From contig JACPDN010000005.1 of assembly GCA_016183985.1 (NCBI GenBank), positions 312,901 through 376,900 on the forward strand: a stretch of 64,000 nucleotides of DNA. Direction: 5' to 3'. Below are positions 56,273 to 64,000 of this stretch, one piece after another (position 1 is the first letter of the stretch; every line of letters begins with the position of its first letter). Origin of the DNA: Pseudomonadota bacterium (GTDB taxonomy: Bacteria; Pseudomonadota; Alphaproteobacteria; Dongiales; Dongiaceae). The notes below the pieces were generated by a model. The model had not been told where the DNA came from. It did not search any database and saw nothing but the letters and a program-made list of their open reading frames with translations. The translations under genes and the position numbers were made by a program.

Positions 56273-57010
56273 TTAGGCCGCGGCATCCTTCAGGAACCGA
56301 CGGTAAAAGTATCCCGTCGACGCCCCCAACGCGGCCCAGAACAGTAGGCCGGTGATGGTCGCCGCCACGATGAAGCGATGCTCCAGCGCCTCGGGTGCGA
56401 CACTCGCGTATTCCGCTGGCTGTGGTGCCCCGTAGGCATGCGGCAAGATGATGAGAACGAGGCCCAGAACGGCTAGCAACGATCGCTTGCCAAAGAAGAT
56501 GAGCGCCAGGCCACCGGCGGTAAGGATTGCTGTTGCCGCCCACCAGACCTGCCGATCGAGAAGCGGCGCCGCTTCTGTTCCCGGCACTTCCGGCGGCAGC
56601 CCCAGATTGGGCGACAGTACAATCGCCACAAAGCCGGCAAAACCCCAGTAAAGGCCGCTGCGCCAGTTCATCTGGCCACCCCAGATGCGGTAGGCCGCTA
56701 CCAACAGCAACGCATAAGCGATGCCGATGAGGACGTCAGCCATGGCGGTGTAGAGAATGCGCTCTGCACCATCTTCCGGCGCCCAGGCCGCCGCTCCATG
56801 GTCATGTGCCGAATGGTCATGACCTTCGGTGGCCTCCGAAACGGCCGCCCCAGCGGTAGCCGATTCAGCAGCAGGCTCAGCTGCATTCTCGAACACCTCC
56901 GCCGCAAGGATAATCCGCGACGTGCTCACTTGATGGACAACGGTGATGAAACCGCCGCTGATCAGTCCAGCCAACGCCGCGACGATGAACAATCGCCGAA
57001 ACGTATCCAT
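56273..57010 (-). CDS. cbtA: Cobalt transporter subunit CbtA
   Basis: AEVFE, His-rich loop HDHSAHDH, WAPEDGAER, PNLGLPPEVPG, RQVWW, PHAYGAP. Confidence 0.9.
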   Translation of the reverse strand: MDTFRRLFIVAALAGLISGGFITVVHQVSTSRIILAAEVFENAAEPAAESATAGAAVSEATEGHDHSAHDHGAAAWAPEDGAERILYTAMADVLIGIAYALLLVAAYRIWGGQMNWRSGLYWGFAGFVAIVLSPNLGLPPEVPGTEAAPLLDRQVWWAATAILTAGGLALIFFGKRSLLAVLGLVLIILPHAYGAPQPAEYASVAPEALEHRFIVAATITGLLFWAALGASTGYFYRRFLKDAAA

Positions 57011-57020
57011 GTGGGAGACC

Positions 57021-57215
57021 TTAGTGGCAGGGGAATGCGTTGGCGTGACGCGTATCGTGGGCGGCGTTGTGAACGGCTTCGATATGCGAGAAGCCAACGC
57101 CCCAAACCATGACGAGGCCAAGGAACGCGGCCATGACGGCGCCGGTCAGCGCTTCGGCGCGCTTGCTGGTCTTGGTGGAAAGGGCGGTCGACGAAAGCTG
57201 ATTAATGGTCTGCAT
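57021..57215 (-). CDS. cbtB: Cobalt transporter subunit CbtB
   Basis: C-terminal HNAAHDTRHANAFPCH signature. Confidence 0.93.
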   Translation of the reverse strand: MQTINQLSSTALSTKTSKRAEALTGAVMAAFLGLVMVWGVGFSHIEAVHNAAHDTRHANAFPCH

Positions 57216-57337
57216 AATAAATCCCCTTACTGTCATTCACGCCGGATGGGGATATCGCATCTTGATCGGCCGGCATCTTTCGACGTCACCTCGATCACAC
57301 CGCGCGGACACCCCGTCCGGAATACGGATTCGCTTCG

Positions 57338-57555
57338 CCGCTGGCAGGTCTCCTGGCTCACGAGTGACTGGCGGCGCCACCTTCCCAACCGATCTCGGCA
57401 CTTTTGCGTACCGTTTCTCGGCCAGTGGTTACTTCGGCGTCCGCCCCTCGCTTACAGTTGCGGGGGCAGTCACGGCTTTGGCCCCTATTTGGGTCGTCCG
57501 CACCGTGTTCCCTATTAATCCCCTGGAATCTATCCATTGGGGAACCATCGACATC
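57338..57555 (-). ncRNA. Cobalamin (AdoCbl) riboswitch
   Basis: GGTTC, AATAGGGAACACGGTG, GACTGCCCCCGCAACTGTAA, CCACTG, TGGGAAGG, GAGCCAGGAGACCTGCC; upstream of cbtB. Confidence 0.95.
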
Positions 57556-57629
57556 CGATCATTCGCCGAGCCGTCACGCGGCGTCAAGGAATTTGTCCAA
57601 TCCCCGACGGCCAGACATCTGCTTTTCTC

Positions 57630-58673
57630 TCAAAGCGACACCTGTTGCAGGGCAAGCGACGGCCGGGAGCCCCAGGCCCGAGCGCGCGATAGGCAGGCGC
57701 GGTAGTCTTCAACCGCCGAGCAGGTCGAAAGGCCGCGCAAAGACACGGCAGCCGTGGCATGGGCCATTTCCAAGGCAGCGGAGACCGGCCATCCCTCATG
57801 AAGGCCGTAAAGCAATCCCGAGGCAAAGGCGTCGCCGGCGCCATTGGCACTGACGATCTCACTTTGCGGGATATTGAACGAAGGAGCCGAAACCACCTCC
57901 CCGTCCCTGGCCAGCGCAATGGCCCCGGCCGGAAAGTGCACCACAACCAGGCGCATGGCTCCCTGCTCCATGACGACCTTGGCGGCGCGGATGCAGGCAC
58001 CGATCTCAGTTAGGCCGTCCGATGAGGTCTGCAGGTTGGCGAGAGCCCCGATCTCGAAGTCGTTCACGACCAGATAATCGAGATGCGGCAGGCAGGGCGA
58101 GACCAAGGCTCTGATGCGTTCCGGCGCGATGCTGAAAAGCTCGAGATTGGTCAGAAGCCCCTCGGCCCGCGCAGCGCGCAACACTGTAACCCAGCCGTTG
58201 GGATCGTTACCCCATTTCTGATCCATGAGCTTATGAGCGCCAGGAAGCCCCAGGTGCAAAATACGGGCATCAATGCCTCTGAAGCTGAAATGGTCGGGCG
58301 TTAGCAGGGCGCCGGTGCCCTGGAAGAAGATATGCGTACGGCGTCCGCTGCGCTGCGAAACATAAGCATCCGTGAATTGCGTCGCCGCAGCGCTAGTCAA
58401 CGCCATGCGGATCCGATCGATGCCATGTGCATCCGCTTGGCCAAGCAGGAAACGACCATCAGCGTCATCGCCAATCAGGCCGATCGTTGTGACAGGAAAG
58501 GCCGGATCGAGCTTTTTGATATCAATGGCGAGATTGCAGCCTGACCCGCCGCCATAAAGTTCCGTCGCCAGAATCTCGGCGACACCGTCTTCATGCGGCC
58601 ACGCGTCGATCGCGCGATTGCGATCAACGCACCAAGTACCCCCCGTCACGATGCCGCGGCAAGACGTCGTCAT
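57630..58673 (-). CDS. PfkB-family carbohydrate kinase
   Basis: GGSGCNLA, IGLIGDDADG, VNDFE, SANGAGDAFASG. Confidence 0.9.
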   Translation of the reverse strand: MTTSCRGIVTGGTWCVDRNRAIDAWPHEDGVAEILATELYGGGSGCNLAIDIKKLDPAFPVTTIGLIGDDADGRFLLGQADAHGIDRIRMALTSAAATQFTDAYVSQRSGRRTHIFFQGTGALLTPDHFSFRGIDARILHLGLPGAHKLMDQKWGNDPNGWVTVLRAARAEGLLTNLELFSIAPERIRALVSPCLPHLDYLVVNDFEIGALANLQTSSDGLTEIGACIRAAKVVMEQGAMRLVVVHFPAGAIALARDGEVVSAPSFNIPQSEIVSANGAGDAFASGLLYGLHEGWPVSAALEMAHATAAVSLRGLSTCSAVEDYRACLSRARAWGSRPSLALQQVSL

Positions 58674-58730
58674 GCCCTCATCTCTACAATCGGTCGGGAC
58701 GGGAATCCAGTGGCTTGGTGCTCTGCTGCC

Positions 58731-59759
58731 TCAGGCCGCCTGCTTCAATACCGTCTCGGAAATGGCCGCGTCATCATCGGCAGCCCTAGCAGGGGCAATG
58801 CCTTTCTTTGCCAGAATGCCATGATAGGCACGGACAGCCTCCAGCGGCTTTACCGATCCGTCCGCAACATTGCGCATCATTTCGATCATGGCGAGCGGGT
58901 CTTCGGCCAAATTGATCTTGCGCCCGAAAAGGGCGACCCTGGCGCCATATCGTTCGGCCTGGGCCAACAATTCAAAGCAGTCGCGTGTCGTCCCTGCTCC
59001 ACCACCCAGAACACCCACAATCATACCCGCGTCATAACTGGCCAATTCTTCCAGTGCCTTCGGCCCGTTATAAGCAATTTTCAGGAATTGTGGTCGGTCT
59101 GCCTTGCTGACTCCAGCCAGGCAGCGAACGATCGAGTCATTGACGAAATGCGGGATGATGTCCGGCGCCAAATCGCGGCCTGCATTCGGGTTGAAGACTT
59201 CGAGAAAGTATTTGAAGCCATGCTGAGCCGCCTCGGCGCGGAAAGCTGAGAACGCCTCGAGAGAGCGGTGATCCGCATCGAGGTCGTTATTGAATGTGAT
59301 TGAGTAAAGGCCGAGGTCGGTGCCGATGATGCCTGCCCCTTCGCGCAAGCCCGCACCGCCGTGCAGCACACGCGACAGAGATGCCGAGCGGAACGGAAGT
59401 GACGGATATTTGTTGTATGTGCCGCCACGGACGATCCAGATATCGCTGGTATCGTTGGCGCGAATTGCCGGCTTCACCGGGCTATCGCGGAACAATCCTT
59501 CGCTCGCCAGCAGTTCCAGGTTGGATGCCGACATCAGCATGATGTCGACGATATCCTGAGCGACGATGGCGCGGATCTGATCCAGGAATTCGGCGCGCGT
59601 GCGGTAGCGCGACCAGCTGCCGTCCGGTTGACGATGCGGGCCCATTGCCGGAATGCTCGGTCCCATATCCGCATCCTTCGCGTCGGCGATAATGAAATCG
59701 CTGCGCTTGTACTGACCGGCGCGGATACGAATGAGTTTCTGCTCAAGACGCGTCGACAT
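58731..59759 (-). CDS. Hypothetical TIM-barrel, class I aldolase-like protein
   Basis: IADAKDADMG, YFLEVFNP, QFLKIAY (candidate Schiff-base Lys), VLGGG, ALFGRK; ATG overlaps the araB stop. Confidence 0.55.
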   Translation of the reverse strand: MSTRLEQKLIRIRAGQYKRSDFIIADAKDADMGPSIPAMGPHRQPDGSWSRYRTRAEFLDQIRAIVAQDIVDIMLMSASNLELLASEGLFRDSPVKPAIRANDTSDIWIVRGGTYNKYPSLPFRSASLSRVLHGGAGLREGAGIIGTDLGLYSITFNNDLDADHRSLEAFSAFRAEAAQHGFKYFLEVFNPNAGRDLAPDIIPHFVNDSIVRCLAGVSKADRPQFLKIAYNGPKALEELASYDAGMIVGVLGGGAGTTRDCFELLAQAERYGARVALFGRKINLAEDPLAMIEMMRNVADGSVKPLEAVRAYHGILAKKGIAPARAADDDAAISETVLKQAA

Positions 59760-61342
59760 CAGTGGGAACCTCCCTGGGCGATCTTCCGGAGTTCGGGCAG
59801 AGCGATACCGAGATTGGGCGCCGCCGCAACGCCGCCAAAACCAAGATAGAGCTCGCGGAACAACGGATAGAGGCGCTGATAAATGGCGTGAGCCACCGGG
59901 TCCGGCATGAAGGTGCGGAACGGCAGGCACATCGTTGCTTGGGCTGCCGCGACATCGGCGTGAATGCCGGCAGCCATGCTAGCGAAGATGCCGGCGCCAA
60001 AGCCGGTGGGGACACCGTCCGGAACGAGGACCGGCTTGCCCAGCACATTTGCATAAACTTGGTTGAGGACCGGGTTGTGCTGGGGAATTCCGCCGCCATT
60101 GATGATCCGTTCGATTGGCACGCCGCCTTCAGCCATGCGCTCCAGGATCAACCGGGTGTGGAAGGCCGTACCTTCGATGGCGGCAAAGAGCTCGTCCTGC
60201 GCCGTATGCAGGAGATTCCAGCCGAGCGTAATGCCGCCGAGATCCGGTCGCACCAACACGGTGCGGTCGCCGTTATCCCAGGTGAGACGCAGCAAGCCAG
60301 TCTGTCCGGCGCGATAATTTTCAAGGCCACGCGATAACTCGGCAATCCTGGTGTTGGCGCGCCTTGCAATGGCGTCAAAAATATCGCCGGTAGCAGAAAG
60401 ACCCGCCTCGATTCCCATCAAATGCGGAACGACACTGCCAGGCACGATGCCGCACAGGCCGGGAATAAGGCCCACATTTTCAGCGGTAGCGATGATGCAG
60501 GTCGAGGTACCGACGACATTGACAACGTCGCCGATCTTGCAGCCCGCGCCCAGCGCATCCCAATGCGCGTCGAAAGCACCGACCGGAATCGGAATGCCAG
60601 GTTTCAGCCCAAGCTTTTCAGCCCAGACGTCCGAAAGCCTGCCCGCAATCTTGTCGGACGTGCAAAAGGCACCGCCGATCTTGCCCCGAATGCCGTCAAG
60701 CAGTGGATCGACGCGTGAGAGAAAATCCTGCGCCGGCAAGCCACCCCAGCGCGGGTTCCACATCCATTTGTGACCCATCGCGCAAACGCTGCGTTTCACC
60801 ATTTTGGGGTCAGAGACACCTGTCAGCGTCGCCGCCACCATGTCGCAATGCTCGAGCGCGGTGACAAACTGTCCGCGCTTCTCAGGGTTATGCCGCAGCC
60901 AATGCAGGACTTTGGCAAAACCCCACTCGTGTGAATAGACACCGCCGCACCAGTCGATCGCCTCGATCCCGTCCCGATGCGCGATGGCAGTTATCTCTTG
61001 AGCTTCGGATTTTGCGCGGTGATCGCACCATAAGTAATAGTCCCCAAGTGGCTTCAGCCCTTCACCCACCATGATCACGCTGGAGCCAGTTGTATCGATG
61101 GCGAGCGCAACGACGTCTTCACTCTTGACGCCACTGCCTCCGAGCACCTTCTTGAACGCACTTGCCAGGGCCGACATCTGATCATCATGGGATTGCGTGG
61201 CGTAATCCGGATCTTCGCGCCGACGATGCAGCGGATATTCCGCACTGGCATGGCCAAGCGCCCTGCCCTCGCCGGAGAATAGCGTCACACGAACGCTGAG
61301 TGTTCCAAAGTCGACGCCGGCGACGACCGATGCCATGCTCAC
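59759..61342 (-). CDS. araB: Ribulokinase (FGGY family)
   Basis: GVDFGTLSVR, IDTTGSS, LWCDHRA, GHKWMW, FDAHWDALG, VGTSTC, WDNGDRT, GGIPQHNP. Confidence 0.88.
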   Translation of the reverse strand: MSMASVVAGVDFGTLSVRVTLFSGEGRALGHASAEYPLHRRREDPDYATQSHDDQMSALASAFKKVLGGSGVKSEDVVALAIDTTGSSVIMVGEGLKPLGDYYLWCDHRAKSEAQEITAIAHRDGIEAIDWCGGVYSHEWGFAKVLHWLRHNPEKRGQFVTALEHCDMVAATLTGVSDPKMVKRSVCAMGHKWMWNPRWGGLPAQDFLSRVDPLLDGIRGKIGGAFCTSDKIAGRLSDVWAEKLGLKPGIPIPVGAFDAHWDALGAGCKIGDVVNVVGTSTCIIATAENVGLIPGLCGIVPGSVVPHLMGIEAGLSATGDIFDAIARRANTRIAELSRGLENYRAGQTGLLRLTWDNGDRTVLVRPDLGGITLGWNLLHTAQDELFAAIEGTAFHTRLILERMAEGGVPIERIINGGGIPQHNPVLNQVYANVLGKPVLVPDGVPTGFGAGIFASMAAGIHADVAAAQATMCLPFRTFMPDPVAHAIYQRLYPLFRELYLGFGGVAAAPNLGIALPELRKIAQGGSH

Positions 61343-62046
61343 TGCGCCTTGCCTGATTGTGCCTGACCATATGTGGCTTTGGCGCCATGCTTACGGAAAT
61401 AGTGTCGGTCCAGCAAGGCCTGGGAAATACCGGCACCGTCCGGCCGCAGCGCCATAGTATGCACGGCCATGCGCGCTACGAATTCCAGCACGACCGCATT
61501 GTGCACGGCATCGCCGGCATCGCGCCCCCAACAGAACGGGCCGTGCCCGGCAACAAGGGTAGCCGGCATGGCCATCGGATCCTTGCTGCCGATCGCCTCG
61601 ACAATGATTGCTCCTGTATTGAGCACGTAATCGCCATGGATCTCAGCATCTGTGAGGGCGCGCGTTACCGGCACGGGGCCATGAAAATAGTCGGCATGGG
61701 TGGTACCGAGGGCCGGAATCGCACGAGCCGCCTGTGCCCATATGGTCGCATATTCCGAATGGGAATGAACGACACCGCCAATGTTCAAAAATGACTTGTA
61801 GAGCACAAGATGCGTGGCCAAATCCGAAGACGGCTGCAGATCGCCGAAGACCTTCTTGCCCTCGAGATCGGTGACGACAATGTCGGCAACCTTCATCTTA
61901 TCGTAGGGAACGCCGCTCGGCTTAATCGCGACCAGACCTTGAGAACGCTCGATCCCACTGACATTACCGAAGGTGTAGAGGACCAGGCCGCCTTTGGCCA
62001 AATCGAGGTTGGCCTCCAGCACTTGCTCGCGCAACAGCTTCAACAT
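61339..62046 (-). CDS. araD: L-ribulose-5-phosphate 4-epimerase
   Basis: TFGNVSG, IKPSGVPY, PSSDLATH, HSHS, GTTHADYFHG, HGPFCWG, RKHGAKATYGQ. Confidence 0.95.
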   Translation of the reverse strand: MLKLLREQVLEANLDLAKGGLVLYTFGNVSGIERSQGLVAIKPSGVPYDKMKVADIVVTDLEGKKVFGDLQPSSDLATHLVLYKSFLNIGGVVHSHSEYATIWAQAARAIPALGTTHADYFHGPVPVTRALTDAEIHGDYVLNTGAIIVEAIGSKDPMAMPATLVAGHGPFCWGRDAGDAVHNAVVLEFVARMAVHTMALRPDGAGISQALLDRHYFRKHGAKATYGQAQSGKAQ

Positions 62047-62068
62047 CGTCAGTCCTTGGAAAAAGAAA

Positions 62069-62101
62069 GGCCGACCGCGAGCCCATAGGTCGCGGTCGGC
62101 C
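62069..62101 (-). terminator. Stem-loop after the SBP gene (terminator or mRNA stabiliser)
   Basis: GGCCGACCGCGA / TCGCGGTCGGCC followed by TTTCTTTTT on the minus strand. Confidence 0.7.
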
Positions 62102-62110
62102 GGGCAACAA

Positions 62111-63043
62111 TTAGTGCGAGGTCCAGCCCTTGTAGGAGTCGAGGTTCTCGTTGGTGATCAGGACCGGATCCAACAGGATAACCTTCGGATCCGGCTTCTT
62201 GCCCTGCAGGATGCCGGCGGCGAGTTCAAGTGACTGGCCCGCCATGGTGTAGGGATCCTGCGACGATGACGCTTTGATCAGCGACGTACCGGTCTTGAGT
62301 TCTGCCTCGATATCCGGCGCACCGTCGACAGCGGTAATGATGAACTCATTCCGGCCGAGTTGCTTGGCAGCGAGGCTCGCCCCGATGCCAGTCGGATCGT
62401 TGATGGCGAAGATGCCGTCAACCTTCGGGAAGCGCGTGAGCAAGCTCTGCGTCACGGCAAAACCGCCATCGCGCGAACCCTTGGCATCCTGATCGTCGGA
62501 GAGGATCTTGATATCGGGATTCTTGGCGAAGACTTCCTTGCAGCCTTTGACGCGATCGGTCACCGACGTCACCTGCGGACCATTAACGATGAGCACGTCG
62601 CCTTTGCCTTTCAGATGATCGACAATGTACTGGCAGGCAAGCGCACCGGCCTTCACGTTGTCGGTCATGACCGTAACGTCCGCACCGTTGGCACCCACAT
62701 CGAACGCGGCCACGACAATACCAGCCGCCTGAGCCTTCTTGATGGCCGGTTCGATCGCGATCGGGTCAACGGCATTTAACATGATCACGTTGACGCCGGC
62801 GGCGATGAAATTATCGATCTGGGTAAATTGCTTGTTAAGGTCGTAATCGGATGAGACCGATGTCACTTCGACATTCGGATTGATCGCCTTGGCCTTATCT
62901 TCGATGCCCTTGATGGTGGCGACGAAGAACGGATTGCCGAGTGAACCGACTGAAATGCCCACTTTCTTCAGTTCCTGGGCGGCCGCGGGGGCCGCAAGGC
63001 CGACCGCAACCGCCAGCCCGAGGGCGAGACGCGAGAGCTTCAT
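62111..63043 (-). CDS. Sugar/polyol ABC substrate-binding protein (RbsB-like)
   Basis: Signal peptide MKLSRLA; LGNPFF, QIDNFI, AFDVG, TDNVKAG, FAINDP, VDGAP. Confidence 0.9.
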   Translation of the reverse strand: MKLSRLALGLAVAVGLAAPAAAQELKKVGISVGSLGNPFFVATIKGIEDKAKAINPNVEVTSVSSDYDLNKQFTQIDNFIAAGVNVIMLNAVDPIAIEPAIKKAQAAGIVVAAFDVGANGADVTVMTDNVKAGALACQYIVDHLKGKGDVLIVNGPQVTSVTDRVKGCKEVFAKNPDIKILSDDQDAKGSRDGGFAVTQSLLTRFPKVDGIFAINDPTGIGASLAAKQLGRNEFIITAVDGAPDIEAELKTGTSLIKASSSQDPYTMAGQSLELAAGILQGKKPDPKVILLDPVLITNENLDSYKGWTSH

Positions 63044-63140
63044 GTTTCCTCCTGTTGCATTTTCCGGACCCGGTTGGACCTCCACCCGGGCACGACTTTC
63101 TATCCAGCGACTTCTATGAGTGCCGGCCACCTTGGCCCCG

Positions 63141-64000
63141 TCATGTCCGCCCACCTCCCCGCAAGCGATAGCGGTCGAGTGCGACAGCACCGATGATGAC
63201 CAATCCTTTGATGATGTATTGCCAAATGTCCGAGATACCGAGCAAGATCAGGCCGTTCGACAACACAGCGATGATAAGCGCGCCAATCAGCGTGCCCCAG
63301 ATCGAGCCGATGCCGCCCGTGAAGCTGGTGCCTCCAAGAATGACCGCAGCGATAGCATCGAGCTCATAGCTCTGGCCGAGCTGCAAGCCATTGGCCGCAA
63401 AGAGGCGCGCTGCGGACATGGCGCCGCCGAGCCCTGATAACAGCCCAGCCATCGAATAGACAAAGAGCAGAATCTGCCAGACCTTGATGCCGGCAAGACG
63501 CGCTGCATCCGGGTTTCCACCCACGGCATAGATGCGATTGCCGAGCACCGTGCGTCGCAGGATCACCCAGGAGATGATGACAACGGCAAAGGCGATAACG
63601 ACCAACCAAGGAACCCCAAACAGCGTTCCATTGCCGATGAAGGCAAAGGGCAGTTCCGGATTGAAGACGGTCGTATCCTCACCAAGAAGGCGGGCGACGC
63701 CGCGTACGGCAGTCAGCGAGCCGAGCGTCACGATAAACGGCGGCAATCGCATCGCTGAAATGAGGATCCCGTTCAGCAGCCCAAAGATGAGACCGACCAG
63801 AAGTGCTGCCGGCACGCCAAGCAGCCCGTAATCGGGTATTTTCGAGCAGATGATCGCGATCATCGCGGACGCAGCGAGGATCGAACCCACCGAAAGATCG
63901 ATACCACCGGTCAGAATGACGAAGGTCATGCCAGCCGCCAGCACGATGTTAATTGCCGCCTGCTGCGCGACGATCGAAAGGTTCATCCAACTCATAAAGC
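63141..64000 (-). CDS. Sugar ABC permease (RbsC-like), 5' end beyond the window
   Basis: GMTFVILTGGIDLSVG, LPPFIVTLG, IYAVGGNPDAARLAGI, YELDAIAAVILGGTS. Confidence 0.93.
   Translation of the reverse strand, partial: FMSWMNLSIVAQQAAINIVLAAGMTFVILTGGIDLSVGSILAASAMIAIICSKIPDYGLLGVPAALLVGLIFGLLNGILISAMRLPPFIVTLGSLTAVRGVARLLGEDTTVFNPELPFAFIGNGTLFGVPWLVVIAFAVVIISWVILRRTVLGNRIYAVGGNPDAARLAGIKVWQILLFVYSMAGLLSGLGGAMSAARLFAANGLQLGQSYELDAIAAVILGGTSFTGGIGSIWGTLIGALIIAVLSNGLILLGISDIWQYIIKGLVIIGAVALDRYRLRGGGRT

Follow-up and report, generated by a model that had tools for sequence, protein, structure and literature searches.

Gene content and boundaries of the operon

The DNA analysed here is a 64,000-nucleotide window (contig C11:312901-376900 of the 4.65-Mb genome, rated 100% complete, of a soil alphaproteobacterium that the names of its homologues group with Dongia-type bacteria), one end of which carries a minus-strand operon whose genes follow each other in the order permease, sugar-binding protein (SBP), AraD, AraB, ALD and PfkB, ALD being an aldolase-like protein and PfkB a sugar kinase (Table 1). 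The locus suggests that a rare five-carbon sugar is used here by a route not yet described. An earlier note, made from the letters of the window alone, had named these six genes (RbsC- and RbsB-type, araD, araB, a triosephosphate isomerase (TIM)-barrel gene and PfkB) and had remarked on the overlapping stops and starts of araD, araB and the TIM-barrel gene. All six genes are confirmed on the minus strand, and each of the two overlaps measures 4 bases (61339-61342 for araD/araB). At the araB/ALD junction the ATG at 59759, to which the ALD start was corrected, lies in an ATGA shared with the araB stop and is preceded 8 bases upstream by GGGAGG. Since this overlap and this site set the start, ALD is a protein of 342 residues and not the 399-residue open reading frame. 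The SBP start was corrected to the ATG at 63046 from homologues and translation, giving 311 residues. Genes were otherwise called with a conservation-ranked caller, whose singletons are unreliable and were left out. At the 3' end, the 500-bp gap separating PfkB from a cobalt-transporter gene (cbtA) is occupied by a cobalamin riboswitch; this riboswitch heads the next unit, cbtA, so that PfkB is the last gene of the operon.

AraB and AraD look orthodox for L-ribulose. AraD shares 56% identity with the E. coli protein, scores 337 bits with NF006047 (cut-off 257) and 327 bits with TIGR00760, under that model's 389, and conserves N28, K42, S44, G45, S74, S75, D76, H95, H97, D120, H171 and Y229, which we take to be the phosphate-binding, zinc-binding and acid/base residues of the E. 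coli enzyme (metal D76/H95/H97/H171, acid/base D120/Y229). AraB aligns with E. coli AraB over its full length at 32% identity, scores 516 bits with the ribulokinase model NF003154 (cut-off 428) and 328 bits with TIGR01234, under its 583, and shares 71-74% identity with AraB proteins from Microvirga-type and Dongiaceae operons. Within this class of bacteria AraD is rare: of 401 genomes sampled, 4 gave a match at E 1e-40. For the SBP the best solved relative is 4RWE, a sugar-binding protein of Yersinia pestis (E 2e-94); the SBP and permease are respectively 56% and 59% identical to ECs_5071 and ECs_5072 of E. coli O157:H7. The Lsr equivalogs for autoinducer-2 (AI-2) are not reached (LsrB 40 bits against 384, LsrK 46 against 528), and the locus holds no LsrG-like gene. 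An SBP homologue (80%) in Labrys neptuniae (L120) adjoins an amino-acid-type ATP-binding cassette (ABC) system and an asparaginase gene, without a permease, ATPase or sugar enzymes of its own.

The permease gene continues past the window to 64148, and the contig ends ~4.6 kb beyond the window (stretch L006), with a PAS protein and a tRNA as the remaining genes. In the genus-mate G016 the same flank finishes in 23S-5S-tRNA (L144:1-982); the locus thus borders on an rRNA operon, and this accounts for the contig ending here. The operon is at or near a contig end in 5 of the 7 assemblies having it. The earlier note had looked to the upstream genes for a dehydrogenase or an isomerase: the former is there, a Zn-dependent alcohol dehydrogenase of the medium-chain dehydrogenase/reductase (MDR) type next to a divergent DeoR regulator, and the latter is not, since no isomerase gene lies in the window part of the locus or in the genes past it up to the contig end. 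An araA gene just upstream, on which the note had said its proposal would fall, was looked for in the flank and is not present there. Among solved proteins the dehydrogenase comes closest to the plain alcohol dehydrogenases 1RJW and 1LLU (E 1e-45 to 1e-54; 1RJW at 1e-53), with threonine- and polyol-type MDRs ranking behind them. Together with its failure to reach any NCBIfam cut-off, this weakens a reading of the gene as a polyol dehydrogenase.

Table 1. Features of the operon, of its 3' neighbour and of the flank beyond the window (window positions unless prefixed L006).
Feature	Position	Strand	Basis or remark
Cobalt-transporter gene cbtA	56273-57121		CbtA
Cobalamin riboswitch	57326-57564	-	RF00174, 107 bits
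PfkB-family (ribokinase superfamily) sugar kinase, 347 aa	57630-58673	-	PF00294, 104 bits (cut-off 25.8)
ALD, class I (Schiff-base) aldolase-like TIM barrel, 342 aa	58731-59759	-	fold, family profile
AraB-type L-ribulokinase (FGGY), 527 aa	59759-61342	-	NF003154
AraD, L-ribulose-5-phosphate 4-epimerase, 235 aa	61339-62046	-	NF006047
Periplasmic SBP (CUT2/RbsB type) with signal peptide, 311 aa	62111-63046	-	PF13407
RbsC-type ABC permease, cut by window end	63141-64000	-	PF02653; complete gene L006:7042-8049
Two-domain ABC ATPase	L006:8074-9708		upstream of permease, beyond window
DeoR regulator, divergent	L006:9822-10685		beyond ATPase
Zn-dependent MDR alcohol dehydrogenase	L006:10742-11818		next to DeoR
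tRNA	L006:12394-12467		towards contig end

The aldolase-like protein and its kinase partners

As a single sequence ALD has no match in Pfam (E up to 10), NCBIfam or the PDB sequences. By sequence it falls outside PF01791 (DeoC/LacD), PF22649 (Cgl0159) and PF09863 (DUF2090), which are its neighbours in a language-model comparison alone (score 0.79-0.80), and an hhalign comparison with E. coli YihT is not significant (probability 0.2). A profile of 24 diverse family members matches LsrF and the 2-amino-3,7-dideoxy-D-threo-hept-6-ulosonate (ADH) synthase of M. jannaschii (MJ0400) at E 6e-6 to 1e-3, over a segment spanning the C-terminal phosphate-binding strands. The AlphaFold2 model of ALD (pLDDT 91.6, pTM 0.90) superposes in VIA-align on ADH synthase with a Z of 24.2 (root-mean-square deviation 2.8, 256 aligned residues), followed by LsrF (Z 23.3), the archaeal class I fructose bisphosphate (FBP) aldolase of T. 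tenax (23.1), Cgl0159 (21.1), sulfohexulose-1-phosphate aldolase (21.0), YihT (20.7-20.9) and LacD (~20); Foldseek on the same model gives E 3.5e-10. Lys227, within FLKIAYNG, is kept in at least 90% of the 24 diverse members and is aligned by hhalign with LsrF Lys203, which we take to be the catalytic lysine of that enzyme. In this alignment Lys227 sits on strand β6, where the class I aldolase superfamily carries its catalytic lysine. The β7 glycine loop (GVLGGGAGT) and the β8 G-R motif (ALFGRKI) are also conserved and align with the C-terminal segment of LsrF; further conserved positions are D26, K28 and D29 on strand 1, R100 and N102, E187 (FLEVFNPN) and FGR280. By its predicted fold ALD is a class I (Schiff-base) aldolase-type barrel of the DhnA/FbaB/LsrF/LacD branch, and Lys227 is the proposed catalytic lysine. 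The aldolase-like character and the candidate Schiff-base lysine that the earlier note had given this protein are borne out to that extent, the lysine being nearly invariant.

The family, which has neither a name nor a model in Pfam or NCBIfam, is large, with ~8,000 clusters at 90% identity in a single-sequence search, all named 'hypothetical', and none of the 120 listed homologues has a precomputed Pfam domain. At E <= 0.001 an exhaustive HMMER search returned 986 representatives (50% identity level), and 190 of these also passed E <= 1e-30. Members occur in Alphaproteobacteria, Verrucomicrobia and other phyla, including on rhizobial and Agrobacterium plasmids. A few are odd fusions, namely GAF-ALD (449 residues, P0132), DUF1349-ALD (476 residues, P0197) and a 781-residue protein without a Pfam domain (P0183), which may be assembly artefacts or regulated forms. 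A 258-residue PF01791 protein that stands beside orthologous SBPs was considered as a deoxyribose-phosphate aldolase (DERA) and set aside, since it is DhnA/ADH-synthase-like and not DeoC.

The PfkB of the operon reaches no NCBIfam equivalog (best IolC_N, 77 bits against a cut-off of 300) and is 40-62% identical to PfkB genes lying directly downstream of ALD in ~50 other genomes. Across 81 ALD neighbourhoods (80 loci from named genomes and the present locus), PfkB is found in 48, almost always directly 3' of ALD, a kinase of the ADP-dependent phosphofructokinase/glucokinase (ADP-PFK/GK) family in 9 and the 'prokaryotic ketohexokinase' Khk (PF25270) in 6; a ribokinase-superfamily kinase is present in 63 and any kinase in 68. 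ALD and PfkB are also found fused in proteins of 674 and 727 residues. Many loci consist of a transporter, ALD and PfkB and nothing else, and some operons additionally hold a cupin- or AGE-type D-lyxose/D-mannose isomerase or an aldehyde dehydrogenase. On Agrobacterium plasmids ALD is accompanied by an ADP-dependent-type kinase, short-chain dehydrogenase/reductase (SDR) genes, an FGGY kinase and a CUT1 transporter. The identity of ALD across these loci is nearly independent of the partner kinase (59-65% with ADP-PFK partners, 60-72% with PfkB partners), which suggests one reaction served by interchangeable kinases. The genomic wiring of the family resembles that of a catabolic aldolase, the gene lying nearly always beside, or fused to, that of a ribokinase-superfamily kinase. 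In one metagenomic ALD-PfkB operon a BrnT/BrnA toxin-antitoxin pair lies between the ABC ATPase and ALD (L007:9243-9777), and a pyridoxal phosphate-dependent aldolase of the Beta_elim_lyase family follows PfkB on this and on a second contig.

Two modules, their relatives and the missing isomerase

The complete layout, ATPase-permease-SBP-AraD-AraB-ALD-PfkB with a divergent DeoR, recurs in 6 genus-mates at 69-98% protein identity, bringing the genomes of the genus with this fused operon to 7. The dehydrogenase is present in 5 of the 6 genus-mate loci and is not in the stretch fetched for the sixth (G022), so that it stands beside 6 of the 7 fused operons. The parts also occur separately: four other genus-mates, G013 among them, have ALD-PfkB as an isolated pair, and two minimal operons, in G013 and on a Dongiaceae metagenome contig, consist of DeoR and importer-AraD-AraB alone, neither of them with the dehydrogenase. 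On these comparisons the operon is a mosaic of two separable modules, importer-AraD-AraB and aldolase-PfkB, joined in one subclade of the genus alone, and the idea in the earlier note that its genes form one linear pathway gives way to this modular layout. In G010 (L113; G010:C1:727500-747400) the fused operon looks decayed: a TGA codon interrupts the ALD reading frame, and AraB and the SBP are matched only in part. Another contig of that genome carries a second ALD copy, which is more distant (51% identity to the present ALD).

Outside the genus, SBPs ~80% identical to the present one occur in two further layouts. In Pseudoxanthobacter-type loci a cupin lyxose/mannose isomerase and DeoR are followed by a class I aldolase of the DhnA type, an FGGY kinase and then the importer. 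Microvirga-type operons, consisting of XylB / importer-AraD-AraB-AGE isomerase with an optional fructokinase-type PfkB before the isomerase, share the gene order of the present operon and are 81% (SBP), 70% (AraD) and 71% (AraB) identical to its products, AraD and AraB together spanning 70-73%. They differ in closing with a mannose/lyxose-type AGE isomerase instead of ALD-PfkB, and the fructokinase-type PfkB on one of their contigs is unrelated to the present PfkB. The cluster ECs_5073-5067 of E. coli O157:H7 Sakai encodes an ATPase, permease, SBP, a 227-residue 'hypothetical' protein (ECs_5070), a class II FBP-type aldolase, a PfkB and a regulator. It shares with the Dongia operon the order ATPase-permease-SBP followed by catabolic genes that close with an aldolase and PfkB, as well as the importer (56-59% identical). 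Its PfkB is 33% identical to the present one and 41-43% identical to the ALD-partner PfkBs of Verrucomicrobia. In the O157:H7 cluster an isomerase replaces AraD-AraB, the aldolase is annotated as class II (metal-dependent) and is not a class I ALD, and the regulator is not DeoR. From this match of layouts, ALD occupies the place of a known aldolase type. ECs_5070 is 47% identical to a Lyx_isomer protein and is presumably EcSI/Z5688, the cupin D-lyxose/D-mannose isomerase, which is reportedly the only characterised member of the cluster (van Staalduinen et al., J Mol Biol, 2010). Taken together, these layouts suggest that the importer family serves sugars which lyxose/mannose-type isomerases convert to D-xylulose, L-ribulose or D-fructose, and that lineages attach differing exits to it, namely XylB, a fructokinase, AraB with AraD, or a kinase with an aldolase.

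Three better known systems bear on the enzymes themselves. With araBAD the operon shares orthodox AraB and AraD; it differs in that its importer is not AraFGH, in the two extra enzymes after araB and in the genome having no AraA match. In the sulfoglycolytic Embden-Meyerhof-Parnas (sulfo-EMP) pathway of E. coli, YihS (AGE isomerase), YihV (PfkB), YihT (class I aldolase) and YihU (aldehyde reductase) act under CsqR of the DeoR family. The logic is the same, as are the protein superfamilies of kinase, aldolase and regulator and the aldehyde-reducing step. ALD is, however, not a member of the YihT/LacD family (PF01791) by sequence, the present locus has no isomerase or sulfoquinovosidase, and AraB and AraD have no sulfo-EMP counterpart. 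In the myo-inositol pair IolC / DUF2090 (Cgl0158/Cgl0159-type), a PfkB kinase phosphorylates the carbon next to a keto group before a class I aldolase releases dihydroxyacetone phosphate (DHAP), as is proposed below for the present pair, but the present PfkB and ALD score far under the family cut-offs. The genome has its own myo-inositol cluster on contig 14 (G000:C14:7877-13388; L131, L132), with IolB and with IolC at 403 bits in a 674-residue open frame that is probably a bifunctional kinase-aldolase (DUF2090) form, a fused analogue of PfkB-ALD. Given this full-scoring IolC and IolB, an IolC/IolJ identity of PfkB and ALD, suggested by the IolC_N and Cgl0159 matches, was rejected.

The locus lacks an isomerase, and the rest of the genome offers a single candidate. 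A search of the whole genome with PF02610 (AraA_N), which matched in 5 of the control genomes including E. coli and B. subtilis, gave no match, and a search for cupin D-lyxose isomerases found none in it either. The statement of the earlier note that no isomerase was in view thus extends to the contig end and, for AraA, to the genome; with AraA found in neither, the operon is not a classical araBAD. The one AGE-family gene of the genome lies on contig 10 in a separate Frc-type ABC and LacI cluster (G000:C10:125378-131557; L130:8376-14557), comprising SBP-permease-ATPase, LacI and the AGE isomerase without a kinase of its own. This isomerase is 35-39% identical to the isomerases of related operons, and the cluster resembles an ALD-containing operon of another alphaproteobacterium (L088: ALD-FGGY-SBP-permease-ATPase-AGE). 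All 7 genomes that carry the fused operon have an orthologue of the contig-10 AGE gene, as against 1 of 17 other genomes of the genus.

Possible routes for a rare pentulose

Beyond what is observed of gene identities, the aldolase fold with its aligned lysine, kinase-aldolase linkage, modularity and the absence of AraA, we tentatively favour, at somewhat less than an even chance, a catabolic operon under DeoR control that handles a rare pentose or pentulose and provides two exits, AraB/AraD to xylulose-5-phosphate and PfkB/ALD to DHAP and a small aldehyde. In the first module the CUT2 ABC importer, AraB as 5-kinase and AraD as 4-epimerase would convert L-ribulose to D-xylulose-5-phosphate and thereby feed the pentose-phosphate pathway. 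In the second, PfkB would phosphorylate C1 of the ketose, the hydroxymethyl group adjacent to the keto group, and ALD, with Lys227 as its Schiff-base residue, would split the C3-C4 bond, releasing DHAP and a small unphosphorylated aldehyde (for a pentulose, glycolaldehyde). The adjacent dehydrogenase may handle this aldehyde, perhaps by reducing it, as it resembles plain Zn alcohol dehydrogenases and accompanies the fused but not the minimal operons. AraA would take no part: the ketose would either enter the cell directly or arise through an isomerase whose gene lies elsewhere, for which the contig-10 AGE protein is the only candidate found, and the minimal operons without an isomerase likewise suggest direct use of a ketopentose or an isomerase at a distance. 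As for the substrates that the earlier note had listed, a rare ketose fits best, because the importer is found elsewhere with D-lyxose/D-mannose-type isomerases and in a genus-mate with AraD-AraB alone; a pentitol is weakened by the plain-Zn-ADH-like character of the MDR enzyme and its absence from the two minimal operons, and a branched sugar found no support.

In an alternative, linear four-enzyme pathway AraB would phosphorylate C5 and PfkB then C1 of the same ketose, for ALD to cleave a ketose-1,5(6)-bisphosphate, much as LacC and LacD act on tagatose-6-phosphate. The resemblance of ALD to LacD and FBP aldolases agrees with such a route, as do the translational coupling of two kinases and an aldolase in one operon and the joint occurrence of an FGGY kinase, a second kinase and ALD in Agrobacterium, Pleomorphomonas and other loci. 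Cleavage of a pentulose-1,5-bisphosphate would, however, give glycolaldehyde phosphate, a compound for which we know of no fate; AraD and AraB appear to be ordinary L-ribulose enzymes, most ALD loci have one kinase only, and each module stands alone in genus-mates, all of which makes the bisphosphate route quite improbable. A single phosphorylation is favoured by transporter loci that contain one kinase, by the ALD-PfkB fusions and by the aldehyde dehydrogenase genes next to ALD, and PfkB and ALD most likely proceed via a ketose-1-phosphate. That ALD-PfkB is a functionally unrelated passenger, a housekeeping or salvage pair that in one Dongia subclade came by chance to lie 3' of importer-AraD-AraB, is unlikely, although it carries some weight: in 4 genus-mates the pair is a two-gene unit without transporter or regulator, AraD occurs in no other ALD locus among the 80, and other alphaproteobacteria have the pair with histidine phosphatase and PAP2 genes in place of sugar genes. 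The ATGA shared by araB and ALD, the retention of the layout in 6 other species, at 69-89% identity, and the O157:H7 cluster, where the orthologous importer occurs together with an aldolase and with a PfkB from the same subfamily, argue the other way.

The remaining alternatives concern what enters and what ALD does. If ribitol or L-arabitol were imported and the MDR enzyme oxidised it to L-ribulose, perhaps with a second ketose, AraB/AraD and PfkB/ALD could consume the products and the missing isomerase would be accounted for. The SBP gives weak matches to 4RS3 and 4RSM of M. smegmatis, which we take to be CUT2 polyol-binding proteins, and the dehydrogenase is conserved beside DeoR. The closeness of that dehydrogenase to plain alcohol dehydrogenases and its shortfall against every NCBIfam cut-off, the minimal importer-AraD-AraB operons that do without it and the aldose isomerases that accompany orthologous importers elsewhere nonetheless render a pentitol route improbable. 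It is very improbable that ALD is no aldolase and instead transfers acyl or ketol groups in the manner of LsrF, with a diketone or ketose phosphorylated by the kinase as its substrate, such as an AI-2-like pentanedione. LsrF is the best sequence-profile match of ALD and ties for its best fold match, and Pseudoxanthobacter-type loci pair orthologous SBPs with an LsrF/ADH-synthase-like DhnA and an FGGY kinase (151 bits with the AI-2 kinase model). An LsrG-like isomerase is missing, though, the kinase partners are of the PfkB, Khk and ADP-PFK types and not LsrK, relative to the O157-type layout ALD stands in for a class II FBP/tagatose-type aldolase, and an aldehyde product is implied by the neighbouring aldehyde dehydrogenases.

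Several observations weigh against the two-exit scheme that we favour. Two exits for one ketose within a single operon look redundant, and with no isomerase in the locus the entry step is missing. G013, which has a minimal operon, has no AGE orthologue in its genome; for this reason, and because the 7 genomes with the fused operon are close kin, the AGE link is a lead and not a finding. The link between dehydrogenase and aldolase similarly rests on a handful of kin genomes. An FGGY kinase is present in 13 of the 81 ALD loci, which leaves a bisphosphate substrate possible, and the closest structural relatives of ALD include enzymes that use the same lysine and are not aldolases (the thiolase LsrF and ADH synthase). 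Finally, full-text literature searches returned no paper on the ALD family, on a natural ketopentose-1-phosphate route or on 4RWE; in the literature searched the route is, as the earlier note had it, uncharacterised.

The isomerase/kinase/aldolase logic that underlies the locus is already known, and what is new here is its construction with an unnamed aldolase family and the combination with AraB and AraD, which is unique. The Dongia operon ties the PfkB-ALD pair to an orthodox AraB and AraD and thereby narrows the sugar to the L-ribulose/D-xylulose stereo-family. We infer that L-ribulose-1-phosphate would have the tagatose-phosphate (3S,4S) configuration, with ALD sharing a strand-5 Glu and the strand-6 Lys with LacD. 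A more specific proposal, possible but on balance doubtful, is that PfkB-ALD constitutes a natural ketopentose-1-phosphate pathway, in which phosphorylation of L-ribulose or D-xylulose at C1 would precede cleavage to DHAP and glycolaldehyde by a previously unrecognised class I aldolase family. Synthetic xylulose-1-phosphate and ribulose-1-phosphate pathways are used in metabolic engineering, and PfkB-ALD would, if the proposal is true, be their natural counterpart. In Dongia the pair would then run parallel to AraB/AraD, supplying lower glycolysis from the same rare pentose that AraB/AraD channel into the pentose-phosphate pathway. Identification of the ALD substrate may also explain the long-unassigned lyxose-isomerase clusters of E. 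coli O157:H7 and Yersinia that have the same importer, and it would annotate thousands of genes now called 'hypothetical' and probably define a new sugar route.

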